Positions 2,799 to 19,499 are shown, counted from the stretch's first letter. The stretch is 64,000 bases of DNA from Candidatus Lindowbacteria bacterium RIFCSPLOWO2_12_FULL_62_27 (GCA_001784175.1 MFPR01000033.1:62001-126000); one strand, 5' to 3'. Translations and numbers: made by a program. The notes: generated from the sequence alone by a model not told the origin.

Positions 2799-3745
2799 TA
2801 GAGTACTCCTTTTTTGAGGTACGTGCAGGTTCGGCCCGAATGACAGGTCGTAAACGCCGCCACTGGAGCGGCTGACGGCTCGGCGGAAACGCGCGCCAGC
2901 ACGACGGTCACGTTGTCCCGCCCGCCGGCTTGCAGGGCGGCTTTGATCAGCGCGGCGGCCTGGTCGGTCGCCGTTCCACGCTCCAGAAGGATTTTTTCAA
3001 TCGCAGTGTCGTCGATCATATCTGTGAGACCATCTGTGCAAAGCAGTATAAGATCATCCGGCGACAAACTCAAGGTCGAATATTCGGGATCGAGGACGGG
3101 TTCCTTGCCGATCACCTTCGTCACCATGTGCCGCATGGGATGCACCCTCGCGTCTTCGCGCGTGATCCGGTTCAGACGGATCAGTTCCGACATCAGCGAA
3201 TGATCGCGCGTGACCTGCTTGAGCCGACCCCCGCCGAGTACATAGGCACGGCTGTCGCCGGCGTGCGCGAGGTGGAGCGTCGTGCCCTGGAGGACGGCGG
3301 CCACGGCCGTGGTCGCCATGCGGTCAAAAATTCCGCGCCGGCCGCCCTCGCTGCGAACGAGATCGTGCGAGACGGAGAGGCTGTTCGCAACATGCTCGGC
3401 AGCCGGCGCCGATCCCAGAGCGAGGACCGTGCGGATCATGTCGGCCGCGACGGTTTTGACGGTGAGATTGGAAGCGACCTCGCCCAGCTCCTCGCCGCCC
3501 ACACCATCCGCGATCAACAGCACCGTCACCGGCTGCGATGCGGGGCCCCGCGAGAACCGCAGGGCCGCGTGCGCATCCTCGTTGTTCGTCCGCACGTTTC
3601 CCATGTCCGTCTGGGCGGTGAGGTCCGGCAGCGGGTCCGTGGAGATGGTCCACTCCTTCCAGCCGTGCTGGACAAGGATGGGGTTCAAGAGCCCCCACAG
3701 TTTGACGATATCGAGAAGATCTTCGTCTTTTTTCACGGCGTCCAT
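2798..3745 (-). CDS. PP2C/PPM-family Ser/Thr phosphatase
   Basis: TDMGNVRTNNED, IADGVGG, AHAGDSRAY, TRDHS, LCTDGLTD, GGRDNVTV. Confidence 0.93.
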   Translation of the reverse strand: MDAVKKDEDLLDIVKLWGLLNPILVQHGWKEWTISTDPLPDLTAQTDMGNVRTNNEDAHAALRFSRGPASQPVTVLLIADGVGGEELGEVASNLTVKTVAADMIRTVLALGSAPAAEHVANSLSVSHDLVRSEGGRRGIFDRMATTAVAAVLQGTTLHLAHAGDSRAYVLGGGRLKQVTRDHSLMSELIRLNRITREDARVHPMRHMVTKVIGKEPVLDPEYSTLSLSPDDLILLCTDGLTDMIDDTAIEKILLERGTATDQAAALIKAALQAGGRDNVTVVLARVSAEPSAAPVAAFTTCHSGRTCTYLKKGVL

Positions 3746-5195: not shown

Positions 5196-5223
5196 ACTAT
5201 AAATGACGCCGGGACGTTGTCAA
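5196..5223 (-). promoter_or_regulatory. sigma70-type promoter of the 5157-1133 operon
   Basis: Minus strand TTGACA-16 nt-TATAGT. Confidence 0.6.
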
Positions 5224-5238
5224 CCTCGGAATTTAAAC

Positions 5239-5267
5239 TTGCGCAACCCTCCGGCCTATGTTCCAAT
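5239..5267 (+). promoter_or_regulatory. Putative leaderless promoter for K3
   Basis: TTGCGC-17 nt-TCCAAT (TG extension), 7 nt before GTG at 5275. Confidence 0.4.
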
Positions 5268-5274
5268 TTTATCT

Positions 5275-7035
5275 GTGATACCCGCGTACGTCGGCAAATA
5301 CAGGATCCTTGAAGAAATCGGCCGGGGTGGAATGGGCGAGGTCTATCTTGCCGAGGACGCCATCCACAAGAACCGGGTCGCGCTGAAACTCCTGCCGGAA
5401 TTTCTGTCCAAAAACGAATCCTTTCAGGAACGGTTCGCGCGCGAGTGCAGGGCGCTTCGAGGCCTCGATCATCCCGGAATCCCGAAGCACTTGGAGGATG
5501 GCGAGGTCGACGGCCGCCGCTATTTCACGATGGAATACGTGGAAGGCCGCATGCTGTCGACCCTCCTGGAATCTCATCCGGACAGGGTGAATGAAAAGTT
5601 GATTCAGGACGTGCTGTACACGGTGGCGAAGGCGCTGGCCTACGCGCACGGCCGCGGCATTCTCCACCGGGACGTGTCTCCGAGAAACATCCTCGTCGCC
5701 AAGTCAGGCGAGGTCAAATTGATTGATTTCGGCATCTCGAAACTGGCGGACGAGATAACGTTGACCGCGACCGGCCAGCATCTCGGCACACCGGCCTTCA
5801 TGGCGCCAGAACAATTCTCGGCCCCCGGCGCGGGGGATGTGGACGGGAGAGCCGACGTCTGGTCGCTGGGGGTCGTGGGATTTCAGATGCTGACCGGCCG
5901 GTTGCCGTTTCCCGGCGAAACCCAGATTACCTTGATGCGGAAGATTCTGGACCCGGCGGTGCCGGTGCCCGCCGTTCTGGAGGTCCATCCCTCCGCGCCG
6001 GCTTCTCCTGCGCGAATCGTGGACCGCGCCCTTCAAAAAAACCGCGCCCATCGGTACGAATCGGCCGAAGCGATGGCCCGCGCCCTCGAACAGCCGAACG
6101 AGCTTCCGGACGAAACATTCAGCCCGTCCCAGCGATATTGGCCGAATCAAATCGTCTACCTGCTTCACGCGAAGCGCTGGGCGCTGGTCGAGGAGGAAGG
6201 CGCCTTCGGCGAGTGGACCTATTTTGGGTTCGCCCGTCAGGGAGGGGATGTGAGCCGCAGGGTTTGTGGGTCCGGGTCCGCCGTTCAGTTGGCGCCCGAA
6301 GCGAAGTGCACCGAATGCAGGGGCCGAATGACGACCGCCCGGTTTTGTTCGGCCTGCGGGCTGATTGCGAAAGATGCCGTCTCGCTGTGCTTGCCTGTGA
6401 TCGCGCGGGGCCGGGCAGCGCAAACTTCCGGACCCGGCCGGTCGAACAAGAAGAGGATACTGGCCGCGGCGGGCGCCATTGCCGCAGTGGGGGTGGGCCT
6501 GTTCTTTTGGCTGAGGCAGCGTCCGACCGCCAAAGATCCGACGGTGTATGCCGGCACGACGGGCCGAACGCCGGTCCAGTCAAGCATCATAGTTCCGGTC
6601 GACCCTTCCAAAATCAACATCAACGCCGCGCCGCTGAAGGAGCTGGGGCGCATCCCCGGACTTGGGAAGAAGGACGCCCAGCAGATCATCCTCCTGCGGG
6701 AGATCGCCGGGCCCTTTCAATCCCTCGATGATCTCTTCATGATGCCGGGAATCTCAGGAAAAGATATGCAGGCACTCAAGCCGCTCGCCTACGCAGGCGC
6801 GGCGGCCGAAAAACTGCCGATGCGACCCAAAGTGAATTTGAATACCGCAACGCTCGACGAATTGAAGAAAATTTTCCCCAAACTGGACGTGCATGATTCG
6901 CTGGAACCTCTTCTTGAATACCGTAATACACGCAAACATTTCCGCGCGCTGGAGGAGATCGCCAACGTGCCCGGATTCGAGACGTTCGAGAAGCGCTACT
7001 GGCTGGTCAGCCGGCTGGCCACCGTGACCCCATGA
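5275..7035 (+). CDS. Kinase K3: kinase + beta domain + Zn ribbon + TM + two ComEA-like HhH units
   Basis: GRGGMGEVY, HRDVSPRN, DFG, GTPAFMAPE; CTEC..CSAC; TM ILAAAGAIAAVGVGLFFWL; ININAA..RIPGLG and VNLNTA. GTG 5275 preferred over the ORF start at 5203. Confidence 0.9.
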   Translation: MIPAYVGKYRILEEIGRGGMGEVYLAEDAIHKNRVALKLLPEFLSKNESFQERFARECRALRGLDHPGIPKHLEDGEVDGRRYFTMEYVEGRMLSTLLESHPDRVNEKLIQDVLYTVAKALAYAHGRGILHRDVSPRNILVAKSGEVKLIDFGISKLADEITLTATGQHLGTPAFMAPEQFSAPGAGDVDGRADVWSLGVVGFQMLTGRLPFPGETQITLMRKILDPAVPVPAVLEVHPSAPASPARIVDRALQKNRAHRYESAEAMARALEQPNELPDETFSPSQRYWPNQIVYLLHAKRWALVEEEGAFGEWTYFGFARQGGDVSRRVCGSGSAVQLAPEAKCTECRGRMTTARFCSACGLIAKDAVSLCLPVIARGRAAQTSGPGRSNKKRILAAAGAIAAVGVGLFFWLRQRPTAKDPTVYAGTTGRTPVQSSIIVPVDPSKININAAPLKELGRIPGLGKKDAQQIILLREIAGPFQSLDDLFMMPGISGKDMQALKPLAYAGAAAEKLPMRPKVNLNTATLDELKKIFPKLDVHDSLEPLLEYRNTRKHFRALEEIANVPGFETFEKRYWLVSRLATVTP

Positions 7036-8891
7036 CGCAAGCGGAACGGTATTTCGGGAAATACAAGCTCATCGAGCCGCTCGAACTTGGAGGCATGGGG
7101 GAGACGTATCTGGCCGAAGACGTCGTCCAGGGAGCGCGACTGGTCGTGAAAATCATGCCGGCGCCATTGTCAAAAAATGCGGCCTTTCGGGACCGGTTCA
7201 TGCGCGAGTGCAAGGTGCTGCGAAAAATGGATCATCCCGGGATTCCCCGGCACCTTGAGGAAGGAGAAATCGACGGTCGACGCTATCTCGCGATGGAATT
7301 CATCCGGGGCCAGTCCCTGGCAAGAATCATGGGGCAAGCGCCGGCCCGGATCAACGAGAAACTGACCGAGACCGTTTTGCGTGGGGTGGCGCGGATTTTG
7401 GCGTATGCGCACAGCCTGGGCATCCTTCACAGGGATGTCTCTCCCCAGAACATCCTGATCACCGAAGGCGGGGAGGTCAAGCTGATCGATTTCGGCATCT
7501 CGAAACTGGCGGACGAGATCACGCTCAGCATGACCGGCGAGTACCTCGGAACGCCGGCGTACATGGCGCCGGAGCAAATCATGGCGTTTGGGACGAAGGC
7601 GCCGGACGCGAGGTCCGATGTCTGGTCCCTGGGCGCGGTCGGGTTCCGGCTGTTGACCGGCCGGCGCCTCTATGATGAAGATTCGCCCGTCGAAGTGGTG
7701 CGGCGCATCACCGATCTCGTGGTCCCGGCGCCGTCTGTTCTGGATGTCAAGCCCGATGCGTCACCGCGTCTGGCTCGGATCGTCGATCGGGCGCTGCAAA
7801 AAATTCCGAAATACCGTTATGAATCGGCCGAGGCCATCGCACGCGAGCTGGAACGATCTGACCGGGCCACGCCGGATTTCTTCAGTCCGGCGCGAAGATA
7901 TTGGCTGGATCAAATGGTCTATCTTCCTTTTGCGAAACGCTGGGCGGTGGTGGACGAAGAAGGCCGTTTCGGAAACCGGTTCTACTTCGGACTCGTGCGC
8001 CAGGATGGTTCCCGGAGCCGGCGGGTCAGCGGCTCCGCCGCCCCAAGTGCCGGCGTCTCCGACGCCGGCCGCAGCAGCGGCTGTTTCGCCGATGACGTAC
8101 GGTCCCGTGCGGATTCCGAGGGAGGCCATGGGTCAAAGGCCTGCACCGAATGCGGCGGTGGCCTGCATCCCGATGAGTTCTGCCCGGCCTGCGGGCTGAT
8201 CGCCGCAGGCGCGGCCTCGTCCTGTACCGTCGTTGCCCGCCACGCCGATATCACGCCGCCCGGGCCGTCCCGACCCGGCCGGATCAAAAAATGGGCGTTC
8301 GGAGCCGCGGGCGTCGTTGCGGCGGCCTTGGGCGTGTTTCTCTGGATGAAACTCACCCCGGACCGGCCCGCGGCCGTCGGTCAACCGAAGGCGGTTCAGC
8401 CGGCGGAGGCGCCGGGTGGAGAAGTTCCGGTCGACCCTTCCAAAATCAATATCAACGCGGCGTCCCTTGCCGAGCTCGCGCAAATCAAGGGAATCGGTCT
8501 CCAGACCGCTTCGCAGATTGTCATCCTTCGCGAAATCGCCGGACCCTTCAAGCACATCAACGAGGTCGGCATGATCCCCGGCGTCACGGAGGAGACGATG
8601 GAGGAACTGAAACCCCTGGCCTACGCCGGTCCCGCCGCTGAAAAATTGCCGAGCCGGCCCAAAGTCAATATCAATACCGCGTCACCGGAGGAACTGAAAA
8701 AAACATTACCCCGCATGAAGAATAAAATCGTCCGGCAGGAACCATGGGCCGCGCTCAATCATCTCATCGAATACCGGCAAGAAAACGGCCCCTTCAAAAA
8801 TATGGAGGAGATTCGCGAAGTCCCCGGATACGGCCGCAGCGGGGTCGGCAAGAATTACTGGCTGGTGTCCAAATTGTGCACGGTGCAATGA
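7032..8891 (+). CDS. Kinase K4: kinase + beta domain + Zn ribbon + TM + two ComEA-like HhH units
   Basis: HRDVSPQN, DFG, GTPAYMAPE; CTEC..CPAC; TM; ININAASLAELAQIKGIG; paralog of K3 with ATGA overlap. Confidence 0.9.
   Translation: MTQAERYFGKYKLIEPLELGGMGETYLAEDVVQGARLVVKIMPAPLSKNAAFRDRFMRECKVLRKMDHPGIPRHLEEGEIDGRRYLAMEFIRGQSLARIMGQAPARINEKLTETVLRGVARILAYAHSLGILHRDVSPQNILITEGGEVKLIDFGISKLADEITLSMTGEYLGTPAYMAPEQIMAFGTKAPDARSDVWSLGAVGFRLLTGRRLYDEDSPVEVVRRITDLVVPAPSVLDVKPDASPRLARIVDRALQKIPKYRYESAEAIARELERSDRATPDFFSPARRYWLDQMVYLPFAKRWAVVDEEGRFGNRFYFGLVRQDGSRSRRVSGSAAPSAGVSDAGRSSGCFADDVRSRADSEGGHGSKACTECGGGLHPDEFCPACGLIAAGAASSCTVVARHADITPPGPSRPGRIKKWAFGAAGVVAAALGVFLWMKLTPDRPAAVGQPKAVQPAEAPGGEVPVDPSKININAASLAELAQIKGIGLQTASQIVILREIAGPFKHINEVGMIPGVTEETMEELKPLAYAGPAAEKLPSRPKVNINTASPEELKKTLPRMKNKIVRQEPWAALNHLIEYRQENGPFKNMEEIREVPGYGRSGVGKNYWLVSKLCTVQ
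8017..8070 (+). repeat. Palindromic repeat family A inside K4
   Basis: GGGTCAGCGGCTCCGCCGCCCCAAGTGCCGGCGTCTCCGACGCCGGCC; read as [14 protein letters not shown]. Confidence 0.85.
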
Positions 8892-8924
8892 CGCGGGCGA
8901 CGGGGCCCTTCCGGGCGCGCGCGA

Positions 8925-10493
8925 TCATTCCACCGTCGCCAGTTTGGAGACCAGCCAGTACCGCTTTCCGGTTGTTGGAAATCCCCGGACGTTGGCGACG
9001 TCTTCGATGGTCTTGAAGGGACCGTTCTTCTGCCGGTGGTCGAGCAGCTCGGCCAGTTCCTTCCACGGATTGTTCGTAGCGTGAACATTGTATAGTTGAA
9101 CAAAGACGGCCTTGAGTTCCGCTTCCGTGGCCGTGTTGATGTTGATCTTCTTTCTCTTCGGCAGCGCCTCCTTGGGCGGCCCGGCGCGGGCGATGGATCT
9201 TAGGGCCTCCAGATTCTCGGGTCTCATGCCCGGCATCATGAAGAGTTCGTCGACGCGGGCGAAGGGGCCGGCCATTTCACGGAGGATGACGATCTGCCGG
9301 GCAGTATAGGGATTGAGAGGCTCAAGGTCCGCCAGGGCTTTTTCGGAGGCCTCGTTGATGTTCACAAGCGAGGTGTCGCCTGACTCGATCCATCGGGGCT
9401 CAACGGGGCCGGCCGGCGTTGGGTCGGCGTCGGAGACGCCGACACTTGGGGCGCCGGAGGCGCTGATCCGTGACGCCGGCACTTGGGGCCTCGGAGAGGC
9501 TGATCCAGAGACGCCGGCATCACGCGCCGATACGAGCCGCCATCCACCCCACACCAGGGCCGCAAGGACGACGACGACGGCCAATCCGGCCGCCATGACA
9601 GGGATGCCGCGCGGGGTGAGCGCGCGCGCGGGCGACGGCGTCTGCGAGACGGCCACGGGTTGGCCCGGTGGTCCCGCACTATCCTCCAGGATTTCCGCGA
9701 CCTGCCGGTACCTGGCGCCGATCCGCCGCTGGAGACATTTGCGGATGATGCTCACCGACCGCGGGGACAGGCTGGGATTCAGGGCGCCGACATCGGGCGG
9801 ATCGAACCGCGGGTCCAGGATTTTCCGGATGACGGCGGGATTCGTTTCTCCCTCAAACGGAAGTTGTCCTGACGCCAGTTGATACCCGAGAACGCCGAGC
9901 GACCAGATGTCGGCGGATTCGGTCACGTTCTTGGACGAGTCGATCTGTTCCGGCGCCGAATAATGGGGCGTGCCGAGAATCTGGCCGGTCAGGGTAAAGT
10001 GCGCCTCCTGAACCATTTTCGAAAGGCCGAAATCCGTGATGCGGATTTGACCGTCGGCCAGCACGATGATGTTTCCCGCCGTCAGGTCCCGGTGCAGGAC
10101 ACCCTGTCGATGCGCGGCGGCGACGCCCTCGCATATCTTCGCGAACAGGCCCCGCCACTCGTCGTCGCCGGGCAGGCCGGCCCGACGGGCCAGCCAAGTC
10201 CGCATATCCGCGCCTTCGATCCATTCCATCGCGAGAAAATACCGGCCGGCGTCCATGCCGAAATGGTAGGCGCGCGGGATCATCTCATGCGAAAGGGTCA
10301 GATAGACGCGCGCCTCGCGCCGGAATCGCTCGACAAATTCCTGCCGGTCGCTGAACGACTCCGGAAGAACCTTCACAGCCACCACCTTGCCGTCCTCCGG
10401 GTCCTCCGCGCGGTAGACCGTGCCCATGCCGCCGCTGGCGACGACCGACTGAATCTTGAACCGGCCGATCCATTTGGGGGTGCCGGCGGTCAT
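8925..10493 (-). CDS. Kinase K5: kinase + TM + two ComEA-like HhH units
   Basis: SGGMGTVY, VAVK, HRDLTAGN, DFG, GTPHYSAPE; TM VMAAGLAVVVVLAALVWGGW; C-terminus closely resembles K3/K4 (QIVILREMAGPF, RYWLVSKLATV). Confidence 0.9.
   Translation of the reverse strand: MTAGTPKWIGRFKIQSVVASGGMGTVYRAEDPEDGKVVAVKVLPESFSDRQEFVERFRREARVYLTLSHEMIPRAYHFGMDAGRYFLAMEWIEGADMRTWLARRAGLPGDDEWRGLFAKICEGVAAAHRQGVLHRDLTAGNIIVLADGQIRITDFGLSKMVQEAHFTLTGQILGTPHYSAPEQIDSSKNVTESADIWSLGVLGYQLASGQLPFEGETNPAVIRKILDPRFDPPDVGALNPSLSPRSVSIIRKCLQRRIGARYRQVAEILEDSAGPPGQPVAVSQTPSPARALTPRGIPVMAAGLAVVVVLAALVWGGWRLVSARDAGVSGSASPRPQVPASRISASGAPSVGVSDADPTPAGPVEPRWIESGDTSLVNINEASEKALADLEPLNPYTARQIVILREMAGPFARVDELFMMPGMRPENLEALRSIARAGPPKEALPKRKKININTATEAELKAVFVQLYNVHATNNPWKELAELLDHRQKNGPFKTIEDVANVRGFPTTGKRYWLVSKLATVE
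9423..9519 (-). repeat. Palindromic repeat family A, degenerate tandem copies in the K5 linker
   Basis: Two CCCCAAGTG(C/T)CGGCGTC units; the last stem is GTCGGCGTC-tcc-GACGCCGAC, a compensatory change relative to other copies. Confidence 0.85.
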
Positions 10494-12331
10494 TTCGAGA
10501 ACACCTGGATCTGCCGCTCGAATTCCTCGCCGGACATGCGGGGGATGCCCATCTCCATGGCTTTTTGCAATCGCGGAGATCCATCGTCCACGCCGGCGCC
10601 GACAACAACCAATTTCACATTTTTTGAAATAGCCCCGCCGCCGCCCTTTGAGTATAAAGCGCCGAGGGCCTTCAATCGCTCGCCGGCCTGCTCCTGAGTC
10701 AGCCTTGGGAGCTGTCCCACAATCACGACGCGCTTCTCCTTGAACGGATTCTCGCCCTTGAGCGCCTGAACGATGAATTTCGCAGTCGCCTCGAATTCGT
10801 CGTCCGAAAGGACCGGCGCGGCGCCCATCAGCGGGATCTCCTCGTCCAGGCGGATCCAGTTCGGACGATGGCGCTTCTTTGCGGGAATTTCCACCACTTT
10901 GGGCAACCGAAAGACGCGGAGAACGATCGCGTGGAGAGGATTACTCACTTCTTTGGCGTGCTTCAACGCGTAATCGAGATCGTGCGCCATCCAAGGATCC
11001 ATCCGCCGGATTTCGGCCTCGCCGATCTTGACGTTGAGGACGGAAAGCGCAACGTATTGGATGGGTACGATGTCTTTGCCGTAGGCCGCCACCGGCGGGA
11101 CTTTTCCGGGTTTGAGTTCGAATCCCTCAATCGGCGACACTGCCGGATACAGGAACAAAACTTTCCCGGGCTTCACGCCTCCCGTCATGCCGCGGAGCGC
11201 GAGGACCGTTCGGCCGGCCCCCAGCGCCGCGGCATGGCGCGGGTCGAAGAGAAGGGCGCTCGATGAGGAGGCGGGGAGTTTGTAGGATCGGAAATCTGAC
11301 GGGGGAGCCCATACCGGATTGTCCGTGGCCGAAGTGACTCCGTCCTCGGCGGCAGGCGCGTCTTCAAGGTCGACGGCGGGGCCTCGGCCCTGCCACCACC
11401 AGCCGAGACCGGCAAGGATCACCAAGCCGGTGGCCGCCGCAATGATCCGCGAAACCAGCCGGCGCCGCCCGGCCGCGGAGGCGCGCCGGGCCACCGGCTC
11501 GGAGGGGTCGCCCTTCAAATCCTCCGCGATCTCCCAAGCCTGCGCGTATCGCCGGTCCGGATCGCGTTCGAGACATTTTCGAATGACGCTTTCCGCCAGG
11601 ACCGACAGTTTCGGATTCAGGCTCCGGGGCGGCGGCGCCTGACAGGCCGGATCCAGAATTTTCTTGATCACCTCGGCGCTCGTGGCGCCGTCGAAGGGCC
11701 GGCGGAGCGTCGCCATCTGGTATCCGAGCACGCCGAGAGACCAGAGGTCCGCCTGCGCGGTCACGTCTTTCGTCGATTCGATCTGTTCCGGCGCCATATA
11801 GTGCGGCGTGCCGAGAATCTCGCCGGTCACCGTGAAATGCTCCTCACGGACCATGGTCGAGAGACCAAAATCGGTGATCCGGACGTTGCCGTCCGGCATC
11901 AGGATCACGTTGCCGTCCGTCAGGTCGCGGTGCAAAATCCCCTGGGCGTGCGCCGCCGCCAGGCCGTGGGCGATCTTTGCGAAAATCGAAAGCCACGGCC
12001 CGTTGTCCGGAAGGTCGGTCTGCTGGGGCAGCCAGGCGCGCAGACTCTTGCCGTCGATCCATTCCATCGCCATGTAATACCGGCTGCCTTCCATCCCAAA
12101 GTCATATATTTTCGGGATCGCCTCGTGCGACAGGCTCATCCCGATCCGCGCCTCACGCTTGAACCGCTCCACAAACGACTCCTGCCGCCCGAAGGCCTCC
12201 GGTAAAACCTTGATCGCCACCACTGTCCCGTCCTCCGGATCCTCCCCGCGGTAGACCGTCGCCATCCCACCGGTCGCGGCGACGGACAGCACGCGGAACT
12301 TGCCGATCTTTTCAGGCGATGGCGCGGTCAT
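10490..12331 (-). CDS. Kinase K6: kinase + TM + DUF1802-like domain + BRCT domain
   Basis: HRDLTDGN, DFG, GTPHYMAPE; TM; LFLYP..IVLRVFRLP..WIRL..PVLSDDEF (DUF1802 pattern); RVVIVGQL..LGA..ISKNVKLVVVG..KAMEMGIP (LigA/RFC-type BRCT). Confidence 0.85.
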   Translation of the reverse strand: MTAPSPEKIGKFRVLSVAATGGMATVYRGEDPEDGTVVAIKVLPEAFGRQESFVERFKREARIGMSLSHEAIPKIYDFGMEGSRYYMAMEWIDGKSLRAWLPQQTDLPDNGPWLSIFAKIAHGLAAAHAQGILHRDLTDGNVILMPDGNVRITDFGLSTMVREEHFTVTGEILGTPHYMAPEQIESTKDVTAQADLWSLGVLGYQMATLRRPFDGATSAEVIKKILDPACQAPPPRSLNPKLSVLAESVIRKCLERDPDRRYAQAWEIAEDLKGDPSEPVARRASAAGRRRLVSRIIAAATGLVILAGLGWWWQGRGPAVDLEDAPAAEDGVTSATDNPVWAPPSDFRSYKLPASSSSALLFDPRHAAALGAGRTVLALRGMTGGVKPGKVLFLYPAVSPIEGFELKPGKVPPVAAYGKDIVPIQYVALSVLNVKIGEAEIRRMDPWMAHDLDYALKHAKEVSNPLHAIVLRVFRLPKVVEIPAKKRHRPNWIRLDEEIPLMGAAPVLSDDEFEATAKFIVQALKGENPFKEKRVVIVGQLPRLTQEQAGERLKALGALYSKGGGGAISKNVKLVVVGAGVDDGSPRLQKAMEMGIPRMSGEEFERQIQVFSK

Positions 12332-13125
12332 TGGAGGAGGTGAAAGGCGTTTTTATAGGGCGTGATGTCCAACGACCAGTCGCTGGTGCGCAGGAACACG
12401 CGGGTTCCATCCGGTCTGAAGGCTGCAGCCCGTGTGGAACCTGTGCCGGATCCCTTTGGCAAGCCTTCGATGACCTCCGGCGACAAGATTTTTCCTGGAA
12501 CCACGAACAGGTCGCCGGACTCTTCATGGTCGATGACTACAAAGTAGGGTCCGAAGGCCGCGAGCGCATGAGAGATGCCCGTACTTAAACTGACAAAGTT
12601 TCGATTCTTCGCCCGGACCGTCGTACGATAGACATAACATTTACCATCCCCGACCTCATACGTTCTTGCATTTCCGCCGATTCGCCCTTCCACAAGAATC
12701 CGGTCAATCCTGACATCGAATTTTGCCGCGAAACGCAGATCGTCGTCGGACATCTCTTTCCTGCGGTACGTCGGCTTCTCCGACGGATGCGCGACCGGCG
12801 CGTCATCGCCGGACCCCCCTTCATCCCCCCTTGTAAAGGGGGGAACGAGGGGGGTTGACCCATTTTCCTGCACCGGGTTTCCGCCTCCTCCGGCGTCAGG
12901 ACGCGCGGCCCAGCCGATGACGGCGCCGGCCGCGAAAAAGCCAGCGAGGAGCGCCGCCGCCGTAGATGCCCGGATTTTTCGCCGCCGAACTCCAATCTGG
13001 ACGCTGCTGCTGATTCCCTCCCACACGGCGCCCGCCAGTTCCGCCGCGCTCCACGCGCCGCAGGCGGGACACGCGTGGCCGGGTTGGACATCGCCGTGAC
13101 CGCAGGTGTTGCAGGATGAACTCAT
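12328..13125 (-). CDS. Kinase-less Zn ribbon + TM + unknown extracytoplasmic domain protein
   Basis: MSSSCNTCGH..ACPACG, basic patch RRRKIR, TM AAALLAGFFAAGAVIGW; start at 13125 chosen by analogy with 24179/26213/26972 (ORF track starts at 13227). Confidence 0.7.
   Translation of the reverse strand: MSSSCNTCGHGDVQPGHACPACGAWSAAELAGAVWEGISSSVQIGVRRRKIRASTAAALLAGFFAAGAVIGWAARPDAGGGGNPVQENGSTPLVPPFTRGDEGGSGDDAPVAHPSEKPTYRRKEMSDDDLRFAAKFDVRIDRILVEGRIGGNARTYEVGDGKCYVYRTTVRAKNRNFVSLSTGISHALAAFGPYFVVIDHEESGDLFVVPGKILSPEVIEGLPKGSGTGSTRAAAFRPDGTRVFLRTSDWSLDITPYKNAFHLLQ
12814..12856. repeat. C/G-run hairpin element inserted in frame
   Basis: CCCCCCTT-GTA-AAGGGGGG stem flanked by further C and G runs; encodes PLVPPFTRGDEGG. 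Confidence 0.6.
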
Positions 13126-13144
13126 GGGATTAAACCAACGGCAT

Positions 13145-13171
13145 CTGGACCCCCGCTTTCGCGGGGGTGAC
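13145..13171 (-). repeat. REP-like palindrome family B
   Basis: GTCA-CCCCCGC-GAAA-GCGGGGG-TCCA on the minus strand; sister copy at 44599-44624. Confidence 0.75.
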
Positions 13172-13213
13172 GGGCTTTGCATATGTAAAGAAGCGTTGGA
13201 TACACTGGACACC

Positions 13214-14425
13214 TCATTCCCCTTCACCGCCCGGTTCCTCTCTCACCTCAGGCGGCAGCCGGCTTTCATCCGTCGTCTGCACAGGCCCAACCGCCTGGAG
13301 ATTTGAAACGGGGTGCGCAATCCAACCACTGCCAACTCCTGCGGCGAGGGCGGCCGCCCACGCCATCATCCATTTCGCCGGGACCCGCCGCCGCCCGGCC
13401 GCCGGATACGGCGATTTCTCATCCGCCGAGCAGGAAAGGCTGAGATTTCGCCCGTCGATCTCGGCCTCCATCACGCCGGATCGGCCCAGCCGGCCGCGCC
13501 GTACGACCCGGCCCATCTTGCCTCCGAGATGTTCGTGCACAAAGACTTCGCCCCGAACATACTCTCGATTCGGATCGTAGACGAACGAGCGGGGGATTGG
13601 ATCGGGCGAATCGAAATCGGCCACGAGTTCATCGCACGACGAATACCGGCCCGCCGGATCTCTGCAGAGACACCGGAGGACCAGCAGATTCCATTTCAGA
13701 TGCGGGCCGGCACCGCCCTCCAGCGGGGCTTTGAGGGCGTGCCGGGGATTGAGGATCGACGAAACGATCGTGGCGATGTTTTTGGAGGGAAACGGCAATG
13801 TTCCCGTCAGCGTTTCGTACAGGACGGCGCCCAAAGACCAGATGTCCGTCCGCGCGTCGATCGGGCTGCCCGTTTCGAACTGCTCGGGCGCCATGTAGGC
13901 CGGCGTGCCGAAATGCTGGCCGGTCATGGCGAGGGTCATTTCGTCGACCAGCCGGGATATCCCGAAGTCGATGACTTTCACGTGGCCCGCGTCTGTCACG
14001 ATGATGTTTTTCGACGAGATGTCCCTGTGAATGATCCCGAGGCCGTGCGCATGTCCGAGCACCCCCGCGACGCCCCGCAGAACCTTTTCCGCAAGTTCCA
14101 CGCCAAGGCTCGATGTGCCGTTGGCCAGGACCCATTCGAGCGGGCGGCCTTCAAAATACTCCATCGTCACGTATCGCTTGCCGTCGATCTCGCCGTCTCC
14201 GTAAATCGTCGGCACGCCCTCGTGCGACAGCCGGCCAAGCGACGCGCATTCGCGCTTGAACCGCTCCCGCCACTGCTTGTTCCTGGAGATGTGCTCCGGC
14301 AGGATTTTCAGCGCGACTTGCCGGCCGCCGCGCGACGGGTCCTCCGCCAGATAGACCTTGCCCGTCCCCCCGTGCCCGATCTCGCGAATGAGCTTGAACG
14401 TGCCGAAGAATTCGGTGCTCAACAT
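13214..14425 (-). CDS. Kinase K7: kinase + beta domain + TM, with almost no extracytoplasmic domain
   Basis: GHGGTGKVY, VALK, HRDISSKN, DFG, GTPAYMAPE; TM WMMAWAAALAAGVGSGWIA followed by only ~30 aa. Confidence 0.9.
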   Translation of the reverse strand: MLSTEFFGTFKLIREIGHGGTGKVYLAEDPSRGGRQVALKILPEHISRNKQWRERFKRECASLGRLSHEGVPTIYGDGEIDGKRYVTMEYFEGRPLEWVLANGTSSLGVELAEKVLRGVAGVLGHAHGLGIIHRDISSKNIIVTDAGHVKVIDFGISRLVDEMTLAMTGQHFGTPAYMAPEQFETGSPIDARTDIWSLGAVLYETLTGTLPFPSKNIATIVSSILNPRHALKAPLEGGAGPHLKWNLLVLRCLCRDPAGRYSSCDELVADFDSPDPIPRSFVYDPNREYVRGEVFVHEHLGGKMGRVVRRGRLGRSGVMEAEIDGRNLSLSCSADEKSPYPAAGRRRVPAKWMMAWAAALAAGVGSGWIAHPVSNLQAVGPVQTTDESRLPPEVREEPGGEGE

Positions 14426-14434
14426 GGATGGGTC

Positions 14435-14821
14435 CTACACCCGCGCGAATTCCTTGAGGAGGACGACGAAATTTTCGCCGACCTTGGACATTTTCTGCAC
14501 CTGGTAGTCTTTCGCCCGGTACCGCACGATGTCGTAGAGATCGACGCCGGCGTCCTTGCGGAGGGTGAGTCGGACGGTGTTGGTTTTGAGGTCCTCGATT
14601 TTGACGGTGTCGGCCGTGGAAATCTCATCTGTGAGCGGCTGGCCCATGATTTCCCTCCGGATGCGCTTGGCAACGTGCGCGCTGAATCCGCGGTCCCTCA
14701 TTATTTTTTCAATGTCTTCGGGAGGCGTCTGTTTCTCGCGCAGCGCCTTGCCGTCCGCCACGGCCTTCTGCATCAACTTCAGAATGGCACCCGCCATCAT
14801 CGTTTCGTCACCGTACGGCAT
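14435..14821 (-). CDS. Hypothetical 128-aa protein, paralog of 4765-5157
   Basis: MPYGDETMMAGAILKL..RGFSAH..GQPLTDEI..NTVRLT..DIVRYR..LKEF matches MAYGDQTLLAGTVLKL..KGFSPH..GEPLEDEI..NTVRVT..DIVRFR..LKEF. Confidence 0.82.
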   Translation of the reverse strand: MPYGDETMMAGAILKLMQKAVADGKALREKQTPPEDIEKIMRDRGFSAHVAKRIRREIMGQPLTDEISTADTVKIEDLKTNTVRLTLRKDAGVDLYDIVRYRAKDYQVQKMSKVGENFVVLLKEFARV

Positions 14822-14828
14822 GCATCCG

Positions 14829-14857
14829 ACAATAGATGTGCGGCGCCGGTTTTGCAA
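14829..14857 (-). promoter_or_regulatory. Leaderless sigma70-type promoter of the 14821-8925 operon
   Basis: Minus strand TTGCAA-17 nt-TATTGT-7 nt-ATG. Confidence 0.6.
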
Positions 14858-17800
14858 TGGATTTTTTCGTGGCGCAAAGATATATAGGAGCGGTGGCCAC
14901 AGGACAGGTGAAGCAAGAGACGTCGAGTTCGGCCGGACCGGTCGTGATGTTCGACGCCGAGTTCCGGCTCGGTCTTCAGCGCCTCCTGGCTCTGCTTGGC
15001 GACCGGGAGTCTTTTTCCATCGTCCAGGCGGATCTGGGGGACGAGGACCCTCAGATCCGGGCCGGCGCGATCCGGCTGATCGGCGAGCTGGGGCTGTCGG
15101 AGTACCTGCCCAACATCCTCGACCGGCTTCAGAAAATCTACGGAAAACAGCAAAGCCAGAAAGAGCTGCCGTTCACCGTCGCGGTCTTCAGCGCCCTTAA
15201 AAAGATCGGCACCACGGAAATCGCGGAGGAGTTGTCACGCCGGTTCGAGCAGTTGCCGGAGTATTTGAGATTGCCGGCGCTCTACGTGATCGCCGCGCAC
15301 GGCGCCGGCAGCGAGCCGATCGACCGATTTTTTCAGGGACTCCTTCGGCCGGACACGCCGCATCCCGATCTTCGACCCGACGCCATCGAGCTGTACGGCG
15401 CGCTGGTCGCCAGAGAGCCTGGCCCGGCCCTCGCGATGTTCCGTTCGGCGCTGACGGAAGGGAATCCCGATGTGTCGCGCGCGGCCGCAGCCGCCCTCGC
15501 CGGCCTCTTGGCCGAACGCGTTTTCGAAATTTCCGACTGGCCGCGACTTCCGTCCGGCCTCCAGGCGCAGATCCTTCGGATCGCGCCCTCCGTGCCGGCG
15601 GCGGCGCTGGGGGAGGCGATGAAGTCCGAACACATAGAGGTGAAGCAGGAGGCGGTGACCCGGATCCTGAGCGCGGCGGAACCGCCCCACGCCATCCTCG
15701 ACGTCATCCGCATCTTCAGCGCCGAATCCGAGTGGGACACGGTCGGCGCGGACGCCCTGGCCTCGACGCTCGCGCGATGGTACTCGACGGGCCAGGGACG
15801 GCTGGCGCTGGTTCAGATGTTTTCCTACATCCTGCGGCGCCAGACGGGCGTATTGGAGAAATTCCTGCCGACCCCCGGCGCCATCCTGGCCGACATCGAC
15901 CGCCTCATCGCACGCCTGCGGCGCGCCCTTTTGCGCACCGGATCGCCCCGGATGGCGAACGCCCTCGCGGATGCGCTGATCGGGAAAGCGGCGCCGGCCG
16001 GCGTCATCGACCTCGTGGACGGCTTGCTGTCGCTGTATCCCAGGGAAAAAGAGCTTCGCGCGACGGTCGAAGAGCTTCTCGGCATCCCGGACGAGCGGAC
16101 ACGAAAACGAATTGCGTCGGAAGTGAGGCAGATTCCGGCCGGGGCGTTCATCCCGCTCAAGAAGATTTTGAAAATCCTCCCGCCCCTCAAGGAACCGTCG
16201 CTGAATCCCACGCTGAAAATCATCCGCGACCTGTCCCGCGCCCACTCCGACGCCGAACTCGAATGGCTGGCCGTCACGCACCTCGCGGGCTGTGGCGATC
16301 CGTCCGCGGCCGGCGCCGTCTGCGACGCGGCGCTCAGGGGCGTCGCCGAATCCGGCGACGGCGAGTCGCACCGCGGCCTTGACGTTTCGGTGTGGCTCCG
16401 GACCCTGTCGATGGATACGGCGCCCGCACGGATTCGAGAGACGTTGCTGGCCATCATCCGCCGGACATCCCAGCCGGATACGTTTCGGGCCGCGGTGGAA
16501 CTCTTGAGCGTCAAAAACGATCCGCAGGTGTCCAGCGCCCTCATGGAACGTCTGCCGGACTTGGTGGGCACGCTGCGATTCACGGCCATCCAAGCCATCG
16601 GCCGCATGGGCGACCGGGTCCATCTGCCTGTCTTTTTGGCGGAACTTTCGGCGGACCGGCAGGAGCGGCAACTGGCAGGCCTGTTGGGGCTGGAGAAACT
16701 TCTTGACGCCAATCCCGATCTTCCGCCGAACACCGTGAGCACGCCGCTCTATGAGTTGAATCGTTGCCCCGATCTGACCATCCGGACAGCGGCGGTGGGA
16801 CTCCTGGTCCGCCTGAACGATCCCAATCGCATGGACCTCGTGGCCGACATCGTGGCGGCGCCTCAGCCCGTCCCTGCGAGCGCCTACCGGCTCGTCTCCG
16901 CGCTCGCGCAAGAGAATATTTCGGAGGAGGACCGCACAAAATTATTCCGCGCCCTCCTCAGCCGGATCGGAAGAATGTCGGACGAGGATTCGGAGCCGAT
17001 CGCCGACGCCTTCCGGGCCGTTCTGGCCGGCCGGCCCTTCGCGTCCCTCCTGCAGACGGAGCGGCAACGCGCGGACGAGGTGCAGGATTTGAGCGACCTG
17101 CTCCGGCGCCGGTCGGGCGCCCAAGCGGCGACCGATTTCAAAATATCCAAGTCCATCCAGCGCCGGTCAATCGCCTTCATCGACATCACCGGGTTTACGC
17201 CGCGCGCGTCCCGGCTCACGGCGATCGAGCTCGGCGTGTTCCTCGTTCAGGTCGAAGACGAGATTCTCCCCTACATCAAGAAACACGAAGGCGCGCTGAT
17301 CAAACGCCTGGGCGACGGATTCCTCGTTTCCTACCCGGGTTCGGTCCGGGCCCTGACCTCCGGCCTCGAGATGCTGCAGTTTCTTGCCAGGAAAAATCAG
17401 CTCCTTCAGGAGGAGGACCGCGTCCGGCTGCGGATCGGCATCCACACCGGGGACGTGCTGGTCGCGCGGGACGACGTTTTCGGCGACACCGTCAACGTGG
17501 CCGCGCGGGTGGAGGCGCTGGGCAAGCCCATGTGCGTCACGTTTACGGAGGACGTGTTCAGGGATCTGCCCGGCCGCAACCGTGTGATCGAGCCGCTGGG
17601 ACCGACGAAGCTGAAAGGGAGGGACGAGCCGATCGAGATTTACCGGATCCGGCTCGACGTCATCTACGAGGCCCAGACCGACGCGATCCGCAAGGTCATG
17701 GCCATGCCGGACTGGATGCCGAAAATCAAAAAATTCAAGACCGACCTGGAGGAACGGTACCGGCGGCTGTCCGAAAAAATCGAGGAGGCCGAGCACATGG

Positions 17801-17865
17801 CCGAGCGCGGCGACTTCGCCCACGCCGAATCCCTCGTCATCGAGATCGAAAAGCAGATGCTGTAG
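14836..17865 (+). CDS. HEAT/ARM-repeat class III adenylate cyclase (start uncertain, 14836-14947)
   Basis: HEAT-like repeats (DEDPQIRAGAIRLIGEL etc.); AFIDITGFT, IKRLGDGFL, RIGIHTGDV, DVFGDTVNVAARVE, with the Lys/Asp pair typical of ATP specificity. Confidence 0.88.
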   Translation: MCGAGFAMDFFVAQRYIGAVATGQVKQETSSSAGPVVMFDAEFRLGLQRLLALLGDRESFSIVQADLGDEDPQIRAGAIRLIGELGLSEYLPNILDRLQKIYGKQQSQKELPFTVAVFSALKKIGTTEIAEELSRRFEQLPEYLRLPALYVIAAHGAGSEPIDRFFQGLLRPDTPHPDLRPDAIELYGALVAREPGPALAMFRSALTEGNPDVSRAAAAALAGLLAERVFEISDWPRLPSGLQAQILRIAPSVPAAALGEAMKSEHIEVKQEAVTRILSAAEPPHAILDVIRIFSAESEWDTVGADALASTLARWYSTGQGRLALVQMFSYILRRQTGVLEKFLPTPGAILADIDRLIARLRRALLRTGSPRMANALADALIGKAAPAGVIDLVDGLLSLYPREKELRATVEELLGIPDERTRKRIASEVRQIPAGAFIPLKKILKILPPLKEPSLNPTLKIIRDLSRAHSDAELEWLAVTHLAGCGDPSAAGAVCDAALRGVAESGDGESHRGLDVSVWLRTLSMDTAPARIRETLLAIIRRTSQPDTFRAAVELLSVKNDPQVSSALMERLPDLVGTLRFTAIQAIGRMGDRVHLPVFLAELSADRQERQLAGLLGLEKLLDANPDLPPNTVSTPLYELNRCPDLTIRTAAVGLLVRLNDPNRMDLVADIVAAPQPVPASAYRLVSALAQENISEEDRTKLFRALLSRIGRMSDEDSEPIADAFRAVLAGRPFASLLQTERQRADEVQDLSDLLRRRSGAQAATDFKISKSIQRRSIAFIDITGFTPRASRLTAIELGVFLVQVEDEILPYIKKHEGALIKRLGDGFLVSYPGSVRALTSGLEMLQFLARKNQLLQEEDRVRLRIGIHTGDVLVARDDVFGDTVNVAARVEALGKPMCVTFTEDVFRDLPGRNRVIEPLGPTKLKGRDEPIEIYRIRLDVIYEAQTDAIRKVMAMPDWMPKIKKFKTDLEERYRRLSEKIEEAEHMAERGDFAHAESLVIEIEKQML

Positions 17866-17873
17866 AGCGTTCC

Positions 17874-19412
17874 ATGCAGGACATCGGCCGGTATCACATT
17901 CTTTCCCTGATCGGCGCCGGCGGGATGGGGACCATCTACAAGGCGCAGGACACCCGGGACGGGCGGATCGTGGCGTTGAAGACCCTGCACAAGATGTTTC
18001 TCGAGAAGGAGGACATCGTGCGGCGGTTTCAGACCGAGGCCCGGGCCTGCCTGAAACTCGTTCATCCGAACATCCTCCGGGTCCTCGATTGCGACCGCAC
18101 GCCCGATACGTTCTATCTGGCCATGGAGTACGTCGAGGGGAAAAGCCTGAAGGAGTATATCAAGGCTCTCGACGCGGATTTACCGGAGCAGGTCCTGCTC
18201 AGGATTTTTTCGCAGATCTGCGACGCCATGGGCTTCGCGCATCAGCAGGGCGTGCTTCACCGCGACCTGTCCGCGTCCAACGTCGTCGTGCGGGACACGC
18301 TCGACGTGACCATCATCGATTTCGGCCTGTCGAAACTCGCCACCGAGATGACGATGACCCTCACCGGCACCATCGTCGGCACGCCCGAATACATGGCGCC
18401 GGAACAGTTCACGTCCCTGAAGGAGGTGGACGAACGCGCCGACATCTGGTCCATGGGGATCCTCCTGTACGAACTGATCGCGCGGCGGTCGCCGTATGGG
18501 GAGACGATCCAGCCCGTGCATCTGACCCGCAAGATCGTCGACGCGCAGTTCGTTCCGCCGCCGCCGGTCCAATTCAACAGAAACCTCCCGGCCAAATACG
18601 ACTGGATCGTCCAGAGGGCCCTTGAGCGGGACCTCGACGGCCGGTATCGGCGCGTGGAAGACATGCTCCGGGATATGAAAGCCCATCCCGATGATGTGAA
18701 ACCGCCCGGAAAAATCGCGCCCGAGCGGCGCGTTGTCTCCCGACTGCGGTATGCGGCAGCGATCGCGATTGGGGTCTGTGCGATCGTCCTTTTGACATTC
18801 TTTATCCTTCATCGGCGTAAGGCGGAACCGCCGCTGGATCGTGCGACATCAACAGCAGCGACGGCCGCGGAGACCGCAGTGTCCGTCGCTCTCAAGGAAA
18901 TGGCGCCGAACGCGGAGGCCCTGGCCCGGGGGATGACCATCTTCGGATATCGGAAGCAGGTGTTCAAACCCGGAAAACGGTTTGTTCTTTATCCGACGTA
19001 CAGAAATGTCCGGCCGGAAAAATTCAAGGAAAAGTATCGGCCGCTGGTCGAAGAATCACTGGCCGCCAAAAAATCCGGCGTATCCATCAAAGCCTATGCG
19101 ATCCTTGAAGACTCCGTCAAAGTCACCGGCGCGGACATGGAGCGGCTGGATCCCTATTATGTCTGGACCCAAGCCGACATGCTGGACTATTGTGGAAACG
19201 CGCAAAACGTTTATGTGGTGTTCATGCGGGTCTATCGGCTTCCGCAGGAAATCGAGATCCCTTCGCTTCCAAGCGGCGCCGTCATCTTCGCCAATCTGGA
19301 CACGCCGGTGTCCGTGTCCGGCAGCACGCCCGTTCTGGACGACGACGCCTATGGGTCGAGAAAGAGGGAGATTCTGACGGCGCTGGGCCGCGGCCTCCCG
19401 GAAGGACCGTAG
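17874..19412 (+). CDS. Kinase K8: kinase + TM + DUF1802-like domain
   Basis: GAGGMGTIY, HRDLSASN, DFG, GTPEYMAPE; TM YAAAIAIGVCAIVLLTFFIL; ALKE..EAL..RK..FVLYPTY..PYYVWT..RVYRLP..PVLDDDAY. Confidence 0.88.
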   Translation: MQDIGRYHILSLIGAGGMGTIYKAQDTRDGRIVALKTLHKMFLEKEDIVRRFQTEARACLKLVHPNILRVLDCDRTPDTFYLAMEYVEGKSLKEYIKALDADLPEQVLLRIFSQICDAMGFAHQQGVLHRDLSASNVVVRDTLDVTIIDFGLSKLATEMTMTLTGTIVGTPEYMAPEQFTSLKEVDERADIWSMGILLYELIARRSPYGETIQPVHLTRKIVDAQFVPPPPVQFNRNLPAKYDWIVQRALERDLDGRYRRVEDMLRDMKAHPDDVKPPGKIAPERRVVSRLRYAAAIAIGVCAIVLLTFFILHRRKAEPPLDRATSTAATAAETAVSVALKEMAPNAEALARGMTIFGYRKQVFKPGKRFVLYPTYRNVRPEKFKEKYRPLVEESLAAKKSGVSIKAYAILEDSVKVTGADMERLDPYYVWTQADMLDYCGNAQNVYVVFMRVYRLPQEIEIPSLPSGAVIFANLDTPVSVSGSTPVLDDDAYGSRKREILTALGRGLPEGP

Positions 19413-19463
19413 TATCTTATCAGAAACCAATAAGACCCGACCGCCCCTCAGAACGTGTGAATG

Positions 19464-19492
19464 TTGTCCGGGGGCCGCCCTCCAGTTATGAT
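19464..19492 (+). promoter_or_regulatory. Leaderless sigma70-type promoter for the K9 operon
   Basis: TTGTCC-17 nt-TATGAT-7 nt-ATG(19500). Confidence 0.6.
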
Positions 19493-19499
19493 CGCGTGG

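Follow-up and report, generated by a model that had tools for sequence, protein, structure and literature searches.

In this study, we analyzed a 64,000-nucleotide stretch of DNA (the window) from Candidatus Lindowbacteria bacterium RIFCSPLOWO2_12_FULL_62_27 (GCA_001784175.1, MFPR01000033.1:62001-126000), which carries a cluster of ten Hanks-type Ser/Thr kinases, K1-K10. Exchange of modules between these receptors is real, at least once: in K5, the sequence of the kinase domain groups with K6 and that of the ectodomain with K3 and K4. The cluster very probably arose by tandem and segmental duplication of receptor kinases, with a sensor swap in K5 and with receptor signalling as its presumed role. 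K5 began as a tandem copy of a K6-like gene of one kinase lineage (clade B). Its region beyond the membrane helix was then replaced by the two-unit HHH_3 ectodomain that K3 and K4, of another lineage (clade A), also carry, and this replacement came before the split between the window's genus and another genus, g3, of the same family. Each receptor would use its C-terminal module to bind a ligand on the outer side of the membrane and would signal by autophosphorylation of the kinase, and PP2C phosphatases would reset the signal.

Kinase and sensor halves of K5

The genes that bear most directly on the exchange are the following (support values are from the trees described below):

5203-7035, plus strand: K3, clade-A kinase with a juxtamembrane beta segment, a CxxC...CxxC zinc ribbon, a transmembrane helix and a two-unit HHH_3 ectodomain (HHH2)
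7032-8891, plus strand: K4, tandem duplicate of K3 and built like it (K3 and K4 kinases grouped at 100/98 in the 45-row tree; ectodomains 55.8% identical)
8925-10493, minus strand: K5, chimera of a clade-B kinase, a transmembrane helix and an HHH2 ectodomain, without the juxtamembrane/zinc-ribbon module
9399-9596, minus strand: junction zone of K5, about residues 300-365, from sliding identity
10490-12331, minus strand: K6, clade-B kinase with a transmembrane helix, DUF1802 (ASCH-like fold by its model; 43.7 bits) and BRCT (25.6 bits)

Two groups of activation segments, K3/K4/K7/K9/K10 and K5/K6 (more loosely K8), had been noticed in a first-pass annotation of this DNA, and both were recovered in kinase trees, as clades A and B. 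All of the motifs quoted then are present in the translations (clade A: K3 LADEITLTATGQHLGTP, K4 LADEITLSMTGEYLGTP, K7 LVDEMTLAMTGQHFGTP, K9 LADEVTLTMTGQHLGTP and K10 LADDITLTVTGQHLGTP; clade-B type: K5 EAHFTLTGQILGTPHY, K6 EEHFTVTGEILGTPHY and K8 TEMTMTLTGTIVGTPEY), except that K10 has DD instead of DE. A maximum-likelihood tree (IQ-TREE) was built from 20 kinases, and a later tree of 45 rows added 25 kinases from three other genomes of the same family (28 kinase-bearing frames, from which three fragments with fewer than 200 aligned residues were dropped). In the smaller tree, clade A was supported at 98/97 and comprised ten rows (K3, K4, K7, K9, K10 and five kinases from other contigs), while K5, K6 and the kinase C20a grouped at 100/100 and were joined by K8 at 89/94. 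In the larger tree, clade A and a five-member clade B each reached 100/100, and K8 was placed at 93/79. These trees show A and B to be two old kinase lineages. Clade A carries HHH_3 arrays, TPR or a domain that we call Xdom outside the membrane and, on the cytoplasmic side, a juxtamembrane segment that usually precedes a zinc ribbon. Members of clade B other than K5 carry DUF1802, alone or together with BRCT: DUF1802 is present in K6, in C20a and in a K6-like gene of G002 (a genome of genus g3), as it is in K8.

The kinase domain of K5 grouped with that of its G002 orthologue at 99/97, inside clade B (100/100), in the 45-row tree, and trees of the two halves of the domain both put K5 in clade B (N-terminal part 97, C-terminal part 99). 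A forced group of the K3, K4, K5 and G002 K5-like kinases was rejected by the approximately unbiased (AU) test (dlnL 179.8, p-AU 2.3e-5). In addition, K5 lacks the juxtamembrane/zinc-ribbon module present in K3, K4, K9, K10 and the kinases C6 and C20c, an independent character that agrees with its position in the kinase tree. In contrast, its ectodomain is 47% identical to that of K4 over 152 aa (E 2.8e-43) and 46% identical to that of K3 over 166 aa (E 8.7e-41), compared to 26% for K9 (E 4.9e-5), and, like those of K3 and K4, carries the motif QIVILREMAGPF...YWLVSKLATV. In a tree built from 42 single HHH units (74 columns), the second units of K3, K4, K5 and the G002 orthologue of K5 formed a group at 99/99 and their first units at 86/96. 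Separate phylogenies of kinase and ectodomain therefore disagree for K5, bearing out the earlier proposal that it joins the ectodomain of K3/K4 to a kinase related to K6.

A breakpoint check by sliding identity mapped the junction just after the membrane helix. Identity of K5 to K6 and C20a is 50-80% through the kinase domain, up to about residue 255, drops across the membrane helix (40-23% by residues 256-300) and has reached background near residue 316; identity to K3 and K4 rises from about residues 330-365. From these profiles, only the region beyond the membrane helix was exchanged. A search of genome contigs with K5 yielded nine loci, all generic kinases of other phyla with 28-33% identity, and a word-index search with its ectodomain yielded only three matches, which were K5, K4 and one unrelated HHH protein.

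Age and tempo of the exchange

Comparison with related genomes, suggested in the first-pass annotation, indicated that the exchange is old. G002 belongs to a different genus of the same family as the window's genome, and its contig C61 contains, in the same order and strand as the window, a K7/C20b-like kinase, a gene for a zinc ribbon and transmembrane helix, a K6-like gene (DUF1802 and BRCT) and a K5-like gene (HHH2). Since the K5 chimera and the gene order are common to both genomes, the swap is older than the divergence of these genera. The four HHH2 ectodomains, with protein identities of 38-56%, resolve at 88/90 as K3 with K4 and K5 with its orthologue.

When the window cluster and four paralogue loci were compared by blastn, no paralogue pair involving the window exceeded 73.5% nucleotide identity (the best reached 73.5% over 283 bp). 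Near-identical donor and acceptor tracts of the kind used by programmed diversity systems were not found by blastn or repeat scan, neither of which included a search for reverse transcriptase. Apart from diverged coding repeats, the repeat scan of the window turned up nothing but a mini-palindrome that occurs throughout the genome. Ratios of nonsynonymous to synonymous change (dN/dS; Nei-Gojobori, by domain) were about 0.09-0.36, with dS saturated at 0.84-2.7; this comparison had been proposed as a further check and gave nothing above 1 in any domain tested.

We also assessed how sensor types are distributed over the kinase tree. The sensor labels of 24 labelled kinases required 7 changes, compared to a minimum of 6, so the kinase and sensor halves are mostly congruent; shuffled labels required a mean of 15.9 changes, and none of the 200 shuffles was as low as 7. 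In every one of the 200 bootstrap trees, HHH2 was the type that had to occupy two places. The first-pass annotation had viewed the cluster as recombinational module exchange generating a repertoire, a view at odds with congruent trees for the two halves. Disagreement between the halves was found for one lineage only, that of HHH2. The exchange itself stands for K5, on the AU test and the unit tree, and the repertoire-generating process is unsupported, given an old swap, paralogue identities no higher than 73.5% and labels that largely follow the kinases.

Gene conversion, remodelling and repeats

A second, smaller paralogous cluster was found on another contig of the window's genome (G000 contig C20; locus L036, 25001-34000). 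It contains C20c (HHH array), C20b (Xdom), X2 (zinc ribbon, transmembrane helix and Xdom) and C20a (DUF1802), and a FIST-domain gene lies beside it. The neighbours C20b and C20c are 83% identical in nucleotide sequence over 620 bp, with third-position identity of 66-78% before about codon 190 and 28-41% after it. They grouped together at 98 in a tree of the N-terminal kinase part, and each grouped with its own orthologue at 98-99 in a tree of the C-terminal part (C20c with its G002 orthologue at 99). These patterns point to a recent gene-conversion tract over the N-terminal 190 codons or so, the only recent recombination found; it makes the two kinase domains more alike, and no sensor moved. 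Ectodomains have also been remodelled: C6, C20c and the C20c-like gene of G002 contain extra pairs of HHH units from internal duplication, and in the G002 gene TPR repeats were added after the HHH units.

A GC-rich mini-palindrome of 52 nt occurs throughout the genome, with its 21-nt core at 83 loci (at most 3 mismatches). Copies in the window are located at 8022-8070 (K4), 9422-9470 (K5, inside the junction zone), about 1085 and about 27989, and others are present in C6 and X2. The element lies in frame in two linkers, that of K4 on the cytoplasmic side and that of K5 on the outer side, and reads S-A-P-S-x-G-V-S-D-A in translation. A 49-nt tract shared by K4 and K5 (90% identity) was considered as a recombination joint and rejected, as it is this genome-wide element and is absent from the K5 linker of G002.

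Sensor domains

The ectodomain of K3, K4 and K5 consists of two ComEA-like HHH_3 units, that of K9 and K10 of four HHH-type units (HHH4) and that of K1 of a single unit. HHH_3 (PF12836, cut-off 27 bits) was matched by K1 (73.5 bits), K3 (65.7), K4 (87.7), K5 (74.0), K9 (80.3) and K10 (64.6), as well as by two kinase-less proteins of the cluster, KL1 (61.7) and KL2 (90.6). The K1 ectodomain aligns with the whole HhH DNA-binding domain of ComEA (8dfk residues 83-149, E 9.2e-15) and is 45-63% identical to proteins named ComEA or ComEA-family by their source. In a word-index search with this ectodomain, 47 of the 48 matches were non-kinase HHH_3 proteins, mostly of the ComEA type with SLBB and HHH_3, and the one kinase was the G002 orthologue. 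The K9 ectodomain has matches in EEPD1 (HhH region; 9yi2, E 1.5e-8) and in ComEA; among 1.84 billion cluster representatives, only four proteins reached E 1e-30 with it, all from G000 or G002. No kinase was present in the 10 long non-family matches to the K9 ectodomain that were scanned, out of 150 matches listed, and in these relatives HHH_3 arrays were joined to metallo-beta-lactamase, secretin, GmrSD or SLBB domains. In the unit tree, the HHH2 type falls on a branch apart from HHH4 and KL units (86/76). The linker of the four-unit ectodomain, reported earlier to recur in kinase-less proteins, was indeed seen in K9 (DPEFLRRYRRVNIN and DPEFLRDWGAPLNLN), K10 (DSEFLKRYKRVNIN), KL1 (DPEFLSKYPTRYDMN) and KL2 (DGEFFRMFPRRINLN).

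In HhH proteins, two intact G-h-G hairpins per unit contact DNA phosphates. When the units were inspected by eye against this consensus, both hairpins were intact in K1 and in the first unit of K3; one was intact and one weakened in the first unit of K4. Hairpins were degenerate in the first unit of K5, in all second units and in most HHH4 units.

K6 carries DUF1802 and BRCT, as had been proposed. DUF1802 (PF08819, cut-off 25 bits) scored 43.7 bits in K6, 88.2 in K8, 41.7 in the K6-like gene of G002, 38.5 in a kinase on contig C73 of G002 and 42.2 in C20a. BRCT (PF00533, cut-off 21.3) was unseen in a whole-protein scan of K6 and reached 25.6 bits with the tail alone, compared to 33.5 bits for the G002 orthologue; the K6 domain also matches residues 585-663 of E. 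coli LigA (2owo, E 8.9e-5). We modelled the K6 ectodomain from a 6-row alignment (m29c7f7f94a7d; predicted local distance difference test, pLDDT, 81.8). The DUF1802 model resembled 6kir (Z 10.3, root-mean-square deviation 3.4, 135 aligned of 157) and 5guq (Z 10.1, deviation 3.2, 126 aligned of 143), and the tail model resembled the BRCT domain of RFC1 (2k7f; Z 9.4, deviation 3.0, 81 aligned). Z values of about 8-10 exceed the stated background of the tool only moderately, and Foldseek support for the ASCH fold was weak (E about 1e-3). By its model, the DUF1802 of K6 has an ASCH/PUA-like fold, an assignment that concerns fold only and not function.

DUF1802 was present in 23 of the 401 sampled genomes, and its fusion to a kinase only in the window's family. 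Elsewhere it stands alone or is N-terminal to a nuclease-like C-terminus (by eye) beside an ATPase gene. At three such loci in distant genomes (L039, L040 and L041, in G054, G221 and G368), DUF1802 occupies the N-terminus of a frame of approximately 490-500 residues, about 350 of them within the fetched stretches. A GG..D...ECK motif in the C-terminus resembles PD-(D/E)xK nucleases, and the large ATPase-like gene that adjoins is reminiscent of defence or restriction modules.

Zinc ribbons and kinase-less proteins

A CxxC...CxxC zinc ribbon lies between the juxtamembrane segment and the membrane helix in K3, K4, K9 and K10. The three kinase-less proteins X, KL1 and KL2 share a plan in which the same kind of ribbon is followed by a helix and then a sensor. 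Kinases of the K7/C20b type have the juxtamembrane segment and lack a zinc ribbon of their own, and at all three loci they are followed by a gene for a zinc ribbon, transmembrane helix and Xdom (X, X2 and G002 L013 9600-10352); KL1 directly follows K10. The adjacency of a kinase without a ribbon to a ribbon-bearing membrane protein suggests, as a hypothesis only, that the kinase-less proteins are co-receptors, providing in trans what is present in cis in K3, K4, K9 and K10. A predicted complex of the K7 juxtamembrane segment with the X zinc ribbon scored 0.28 compared to a mark of 0.32, which speaks neither for nor against binding.

X is 41% identical to X2 and 38-41% identical to the C20b ectodomain and that of the G002 orthologue of C20b, and its zinc ribbon is 51% identical to that of its positional counterpart in G002. 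Profile scans found no Pfam family in X, and Xdom had no sequence match in the PDB. A structure model of X (zinc ribbon, transmembrane helix and Xdom; 4-row alignment) had a mean pLDDT of 47.3, too poor for a fold search. X was considered as a chimera, with a ribbon like that of the G002 neighbour and an ectodomain like that of C20b, and this was rejected after X2 was found, the four Xdoms being about equally distant (38-44%). Judging from these sequences, a kinase-Xdom gene followed by a gene for a zinc ribbon, helix and Xdom is the old arrangement, of which the G002 copy has diverged. K7 has lost its Xdom ectodomain, which its relatives C20b and G002 C61 10349-12061 carry.

Composition of the island

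Positions 1,500-27,000 of the window form a dense signalling island with 10 kinases, 2 PP2C phosphatases, 2 nucleotide cyclases and 3 kinase-less membrane proteins, whose genes are tightly packed, with start/stop overlaps. One cyclase is encoded by a GAF-cyclase gene at the start of the window and the other by a HEAT-cyclase gene. The genome comprises 4.39 Mb in 44 contigs and has 20 kinase matches above the Pfam cut-off, half of them (10 of 20) on the window's contig. The other features of the island are:

1533-2798, minus strand: K1, kinase with one transmembrane helix (frame residues 364-382) and a single canonical ComEA-type HHH_3 ectodomain (Pkinase 183.7 bits, HHH_3 73.5 bits)
2798-3745, minus strand: PP2C phosphatase (PP2C 55.6 bits)
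3755-4768, minus strand: K2, soluble kinase in which no transmembrane helix was found, with a short C-terminal segment (Pkinase 167.1 bits)
12328-13125, minus strand: X, kinase-less protein with a zinc ribbon, a transmembrane helix and an Xdom ectodomain (no Pfam family)
13214-14425, minus strand: K7, clade-A kinase with a juxtamembrane segment, a transmembrane helix and only a 33-residue tail (relatives carry Xdom)
14836-17865, plus strand: HEAT-repeat protein with a class III nucleotide cyclase domain (Guanylate_cyc 64.7 bits, HEAT_2 50.6 bits)
17874-19412, plus strand: K8, kinase loosely in clade B, with a transmembrane helix and DUF1802 (88.2 bits)
19461-21857, plus strand: K9, clade-A kinase with a juxtamembrane segment, a zinc ribbon, a transmembrane helix and four HHH-type units (HHH4)
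21859-24177, plus strand: K10, architecture as in K9 (post-kinase regions 45% identical to K9 over 533 aa)
24179-25060, plus strand: KL1, kinase-less protein with a zinc ribbon, a transmembrane helix and two HHH units (HHH_3 61.7 bits)
25062-26120, minus strand: second PP2C phosphatase (PP2C 43.7 bits)
26213-26971, plus strand: KL2, kinase-less protein with a zinc ribbon, a transmembrane helix and two HHH units (HHH_3 90.6 bits)

The start of K8 is probably at 17874, because the long open reading frame from 16764 overlaps the cyclase gene, and X probably starts at 13125. All ten kinases match Pkinase (PF00069, cut-off 31.7) with 139.9-183.7 bits. Hanks-type kinases are recognized by a glycine loop, a VAxK lysine and HRD...N, DFG and APE motifs. 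These were read in the translations of K3 (GRGGMGEVY, VALKLL, HRDVSPRN, DFGIS and APEQ) and K5 (GGMGTVY, VAVKVL, HRDLTAGN, DFGLS and APEQ), and the remaining eight kinases have the same pattern. Membrane helices were called by Kyte-Doolittle hydropathy with a threshold of our own (1.6). In nine of the ten kinases, a hydrophobic helix follows the kinase domain, with arginine-rich stretches before it; the helix reached at least 1.6 in K1, K3, K4, K5, K6, K8 and K10 and was visible but weaker in K7 and K9, and none was seen in K2. From hydropathy, we infer that the C-terminal modules of the window kinases sit outside the cytoplasmic membrane. The C-terminal tail of K2 aligns weakly (by eye) with the juxtamembrane segment of the membrane kinases, and K2 could partner kinase-less receptors.

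Two very large TPR-repeat proteins are encoded downstream of the island, at 37201-40818 and 46996-51480 (both minus strand; 1205 and 1494 aa). A gene at 41875-43389 (plus strand) encodes a protein with a signal-peptide-like N-terminus and two PLDc_2 halves with a ComEA-like HHH_3 inserted between them, which is probably a secreted DNA-binding nuclease. A secreted PLD-like gene is also present in the kinase cluster of G002 (L013 12468-13535).

Discussion

Given that HHH2 occurs in two kinase lineages, both might have received it independently from a third gene, e.g., one for a kinase-less protein with a zinc ribbon, transmembrane helix and HHH units like KL1 or KL2. Kinase-less receptors with paired HHH units do exist in the cluster, the HHH2 branch is separate from HHH4 and KL units, so that the ectodomain of K3 and K4 is not simply a trimmed HHH4, and G002 has the K5 type without the K3/K4 type. 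However, no kinase-less HHH2-type protein was found, including among the three word-index matches to the K5 ectodomain, and K4 and K5 meet tail to tail at their HHH2-coding ends, with 33 nt between them, as would fit a local event; we regard a third-gene donor as improbable. The case is weaker still for active recombination, by cassette exchange or frequent gene conversion, that continues to reshuffle kinase and sensor halves into a receptor repertoire. The tight packing of genes with start/stop overlaps, the repeat elements in linkers and the C20b/C20c conversion tract could be taken as its traces, but the tract lies on another contig, homogenises kinase domains and moves no sensor, and the linker repeat is the element found at 83 loci and missing from the G002 K5 linker. 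Such a process is very improbable when, in addition, no window paralogues are more than 73.5% identical, the chimera and the K7-K6-K5 gene order are common to another genus, sensor labels change only once more than the minimum and the ratio of nonsynonymous to synonymous differences (pN/pS) is below 1 in every domain tested, though with dS saturated. It is scarcely credible that no exchange occurred and that the incongruence reflects tree error, convergence of activation segments or a chimeric metagenome assembly. The assembly is a draft in 44 contigs, and short domain alignments, such as that of the HHH units, give weak trees; yet the congruent topology is rejected by the AU test, both kinase-domain halves put K5 in clade B, the juxtamembrane/zinc-ribbon module is present or absent in accord with the kinase tree, and an independent assembly from another genus holds the same chimera.

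The account that we favour, duplication of receptor kinases with an old sensor swap in K5 and signalling through the outer modules, also has observations weighing against it. The HHH2 transfer could have run from A to B or from B to A, or both copies could stem from a third gene, and no K3/K4-like gene was found in the assembled contigs of G002 (91% complete, about 300 contigs). Only 74 columns underlie the unit tree, and its first-unit clade is not starred. A long-branch DUF1802 kinase of G002 (contig C73, locus L016, 6188-7903, minus strand) falls outside clade B in the 45-row tree, which may reflect a second transfer of a sensor, here DUF1802, or an artefact of placement. Membrane topology was read from hydropathy and from arginine-rich stretches before the helix, and K7 and K9 fall under the 1.6 threshold. 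In addition, the degenerate hairpins suggest that DNA binding may have been lost in HHH4 units.

In Planctomycetota, membrane Hanks-type kinases with variable periplasmic domains have been described, with lineage-specific expansion in tandem and the same architecture arising repeatedly and independently, and Myxobacteria are cited in the same paper for kinase expansion by duplication, partly in tandem (PMC11032199). The window kinases are similar in having a cytoplasmic kinase, one membrane pass and a variable outer C-terminal domain, as well as the same kind of incongruence between kinase and sensor (PMC11032199). Outer domains in that paper are mostly WD40 and TPR arrays, and its main text does not contain the term 'helix-hairpin', while its supplementary tables might list a rare HHH_3 architecture. 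In contrast, the window family has ComEA-type HhH arrays, DUF1802, BRCT, a juxtamembrane/zinc-ribbon module and kinase-less partners, and is small (20 kinases in 4.4 Mb, half in one locus). The evolutionary process here is of a known kind, namely ordinary duplication and domain shuffling, and the receptor set is unusual.

Each part of this set was compared with known systems. ComEA (8dfk, 8dss, 2duy) resembles the K1 ectodomain, and both lie outside the cytoplasmic membrane behind one helix. However, ComEA has no kinase and carries SLBB instead (47 of the 48 K1-ectodomain matches), and K3-K5, K9 and K10 differ from it in having two to four diverged units, most of them without glycine hairpins (by eye). 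PASTA kinases (PknB, StkP, PrkC), like the window kinases in overall plan, combine a Hanks kinase, one transmembrane helix and a repeated small extracellular domain of variable copy number; no PASTA match was found in any of the ten window kinases, whose repeat unit is HHH_3. The modelled K6 ectodomain folds like ASCH/PUA proteins (mouse CXorf40A, 6kir; Zymomonas 5guq; TRIP4, 9kyk; E. coli YqfB, 9kyf) and the BRCT domains of LigA and RFC1 (2owo, 2k7f). Known ASCH and BRCT domains are intracellular and bind nucleic acids or modify nucleosides, whereas the K6 copies lie beyond the membrane helix of the kinase. No paper on kinases whose ectodomains are ComEA-type HhH, DUF1802 or BRCT came up in the literature searches, and kinase fusions to these domains were found only in the window's family in the searches made.

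All identifiable sensor folds of the island have nucleic-acid-binding relatives, and by analogy with the ComEA-type HhH, ASCH-like and BRCT folds the ligands of these receptors may be nucleic acids or related polymers. A more specific scheme is tentative and, taken as a whole, rather unlikely: the outer parts of the receptors would all stem from folds for nucleic-acid binding, namely a near-canonical ComEA domain in K1, diverged HhH arrays, an ASCH-like DUF1802 and a BRCT of the LigA/RFC1 type. The island would sense extracellular DNA or related polymers and respond by phosphorylation on Ser/Thr and by cyclic-nucleotide signals, and X, KL1 and KL2 would be co-receptors that dock on the juxtamembrane segment of the ribbonless K7 and K2.

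Duplication with sensor swapping is an accepted mode of growth of bacterial signalling families, and the mosaic pattern itself is to be expected. The locus is an unusually clean and datable example of it, with one swap, a mapped junction, presence in two genera and an unswapped sister gene beside it. The sensor set matters more than the mosaic pattern, and what is new here is this set of sensor folds, together with three kinase-less genes for zinc ribbon, membrane helix and sensor beside the kinases. If any of these receptors does bind extracellular DNA, it would be, to our knowledge, the first bacterial Ser/Thr kinase receptor for DNA, and such a DNA-binding receptor would give DUF1802 its first functional context.

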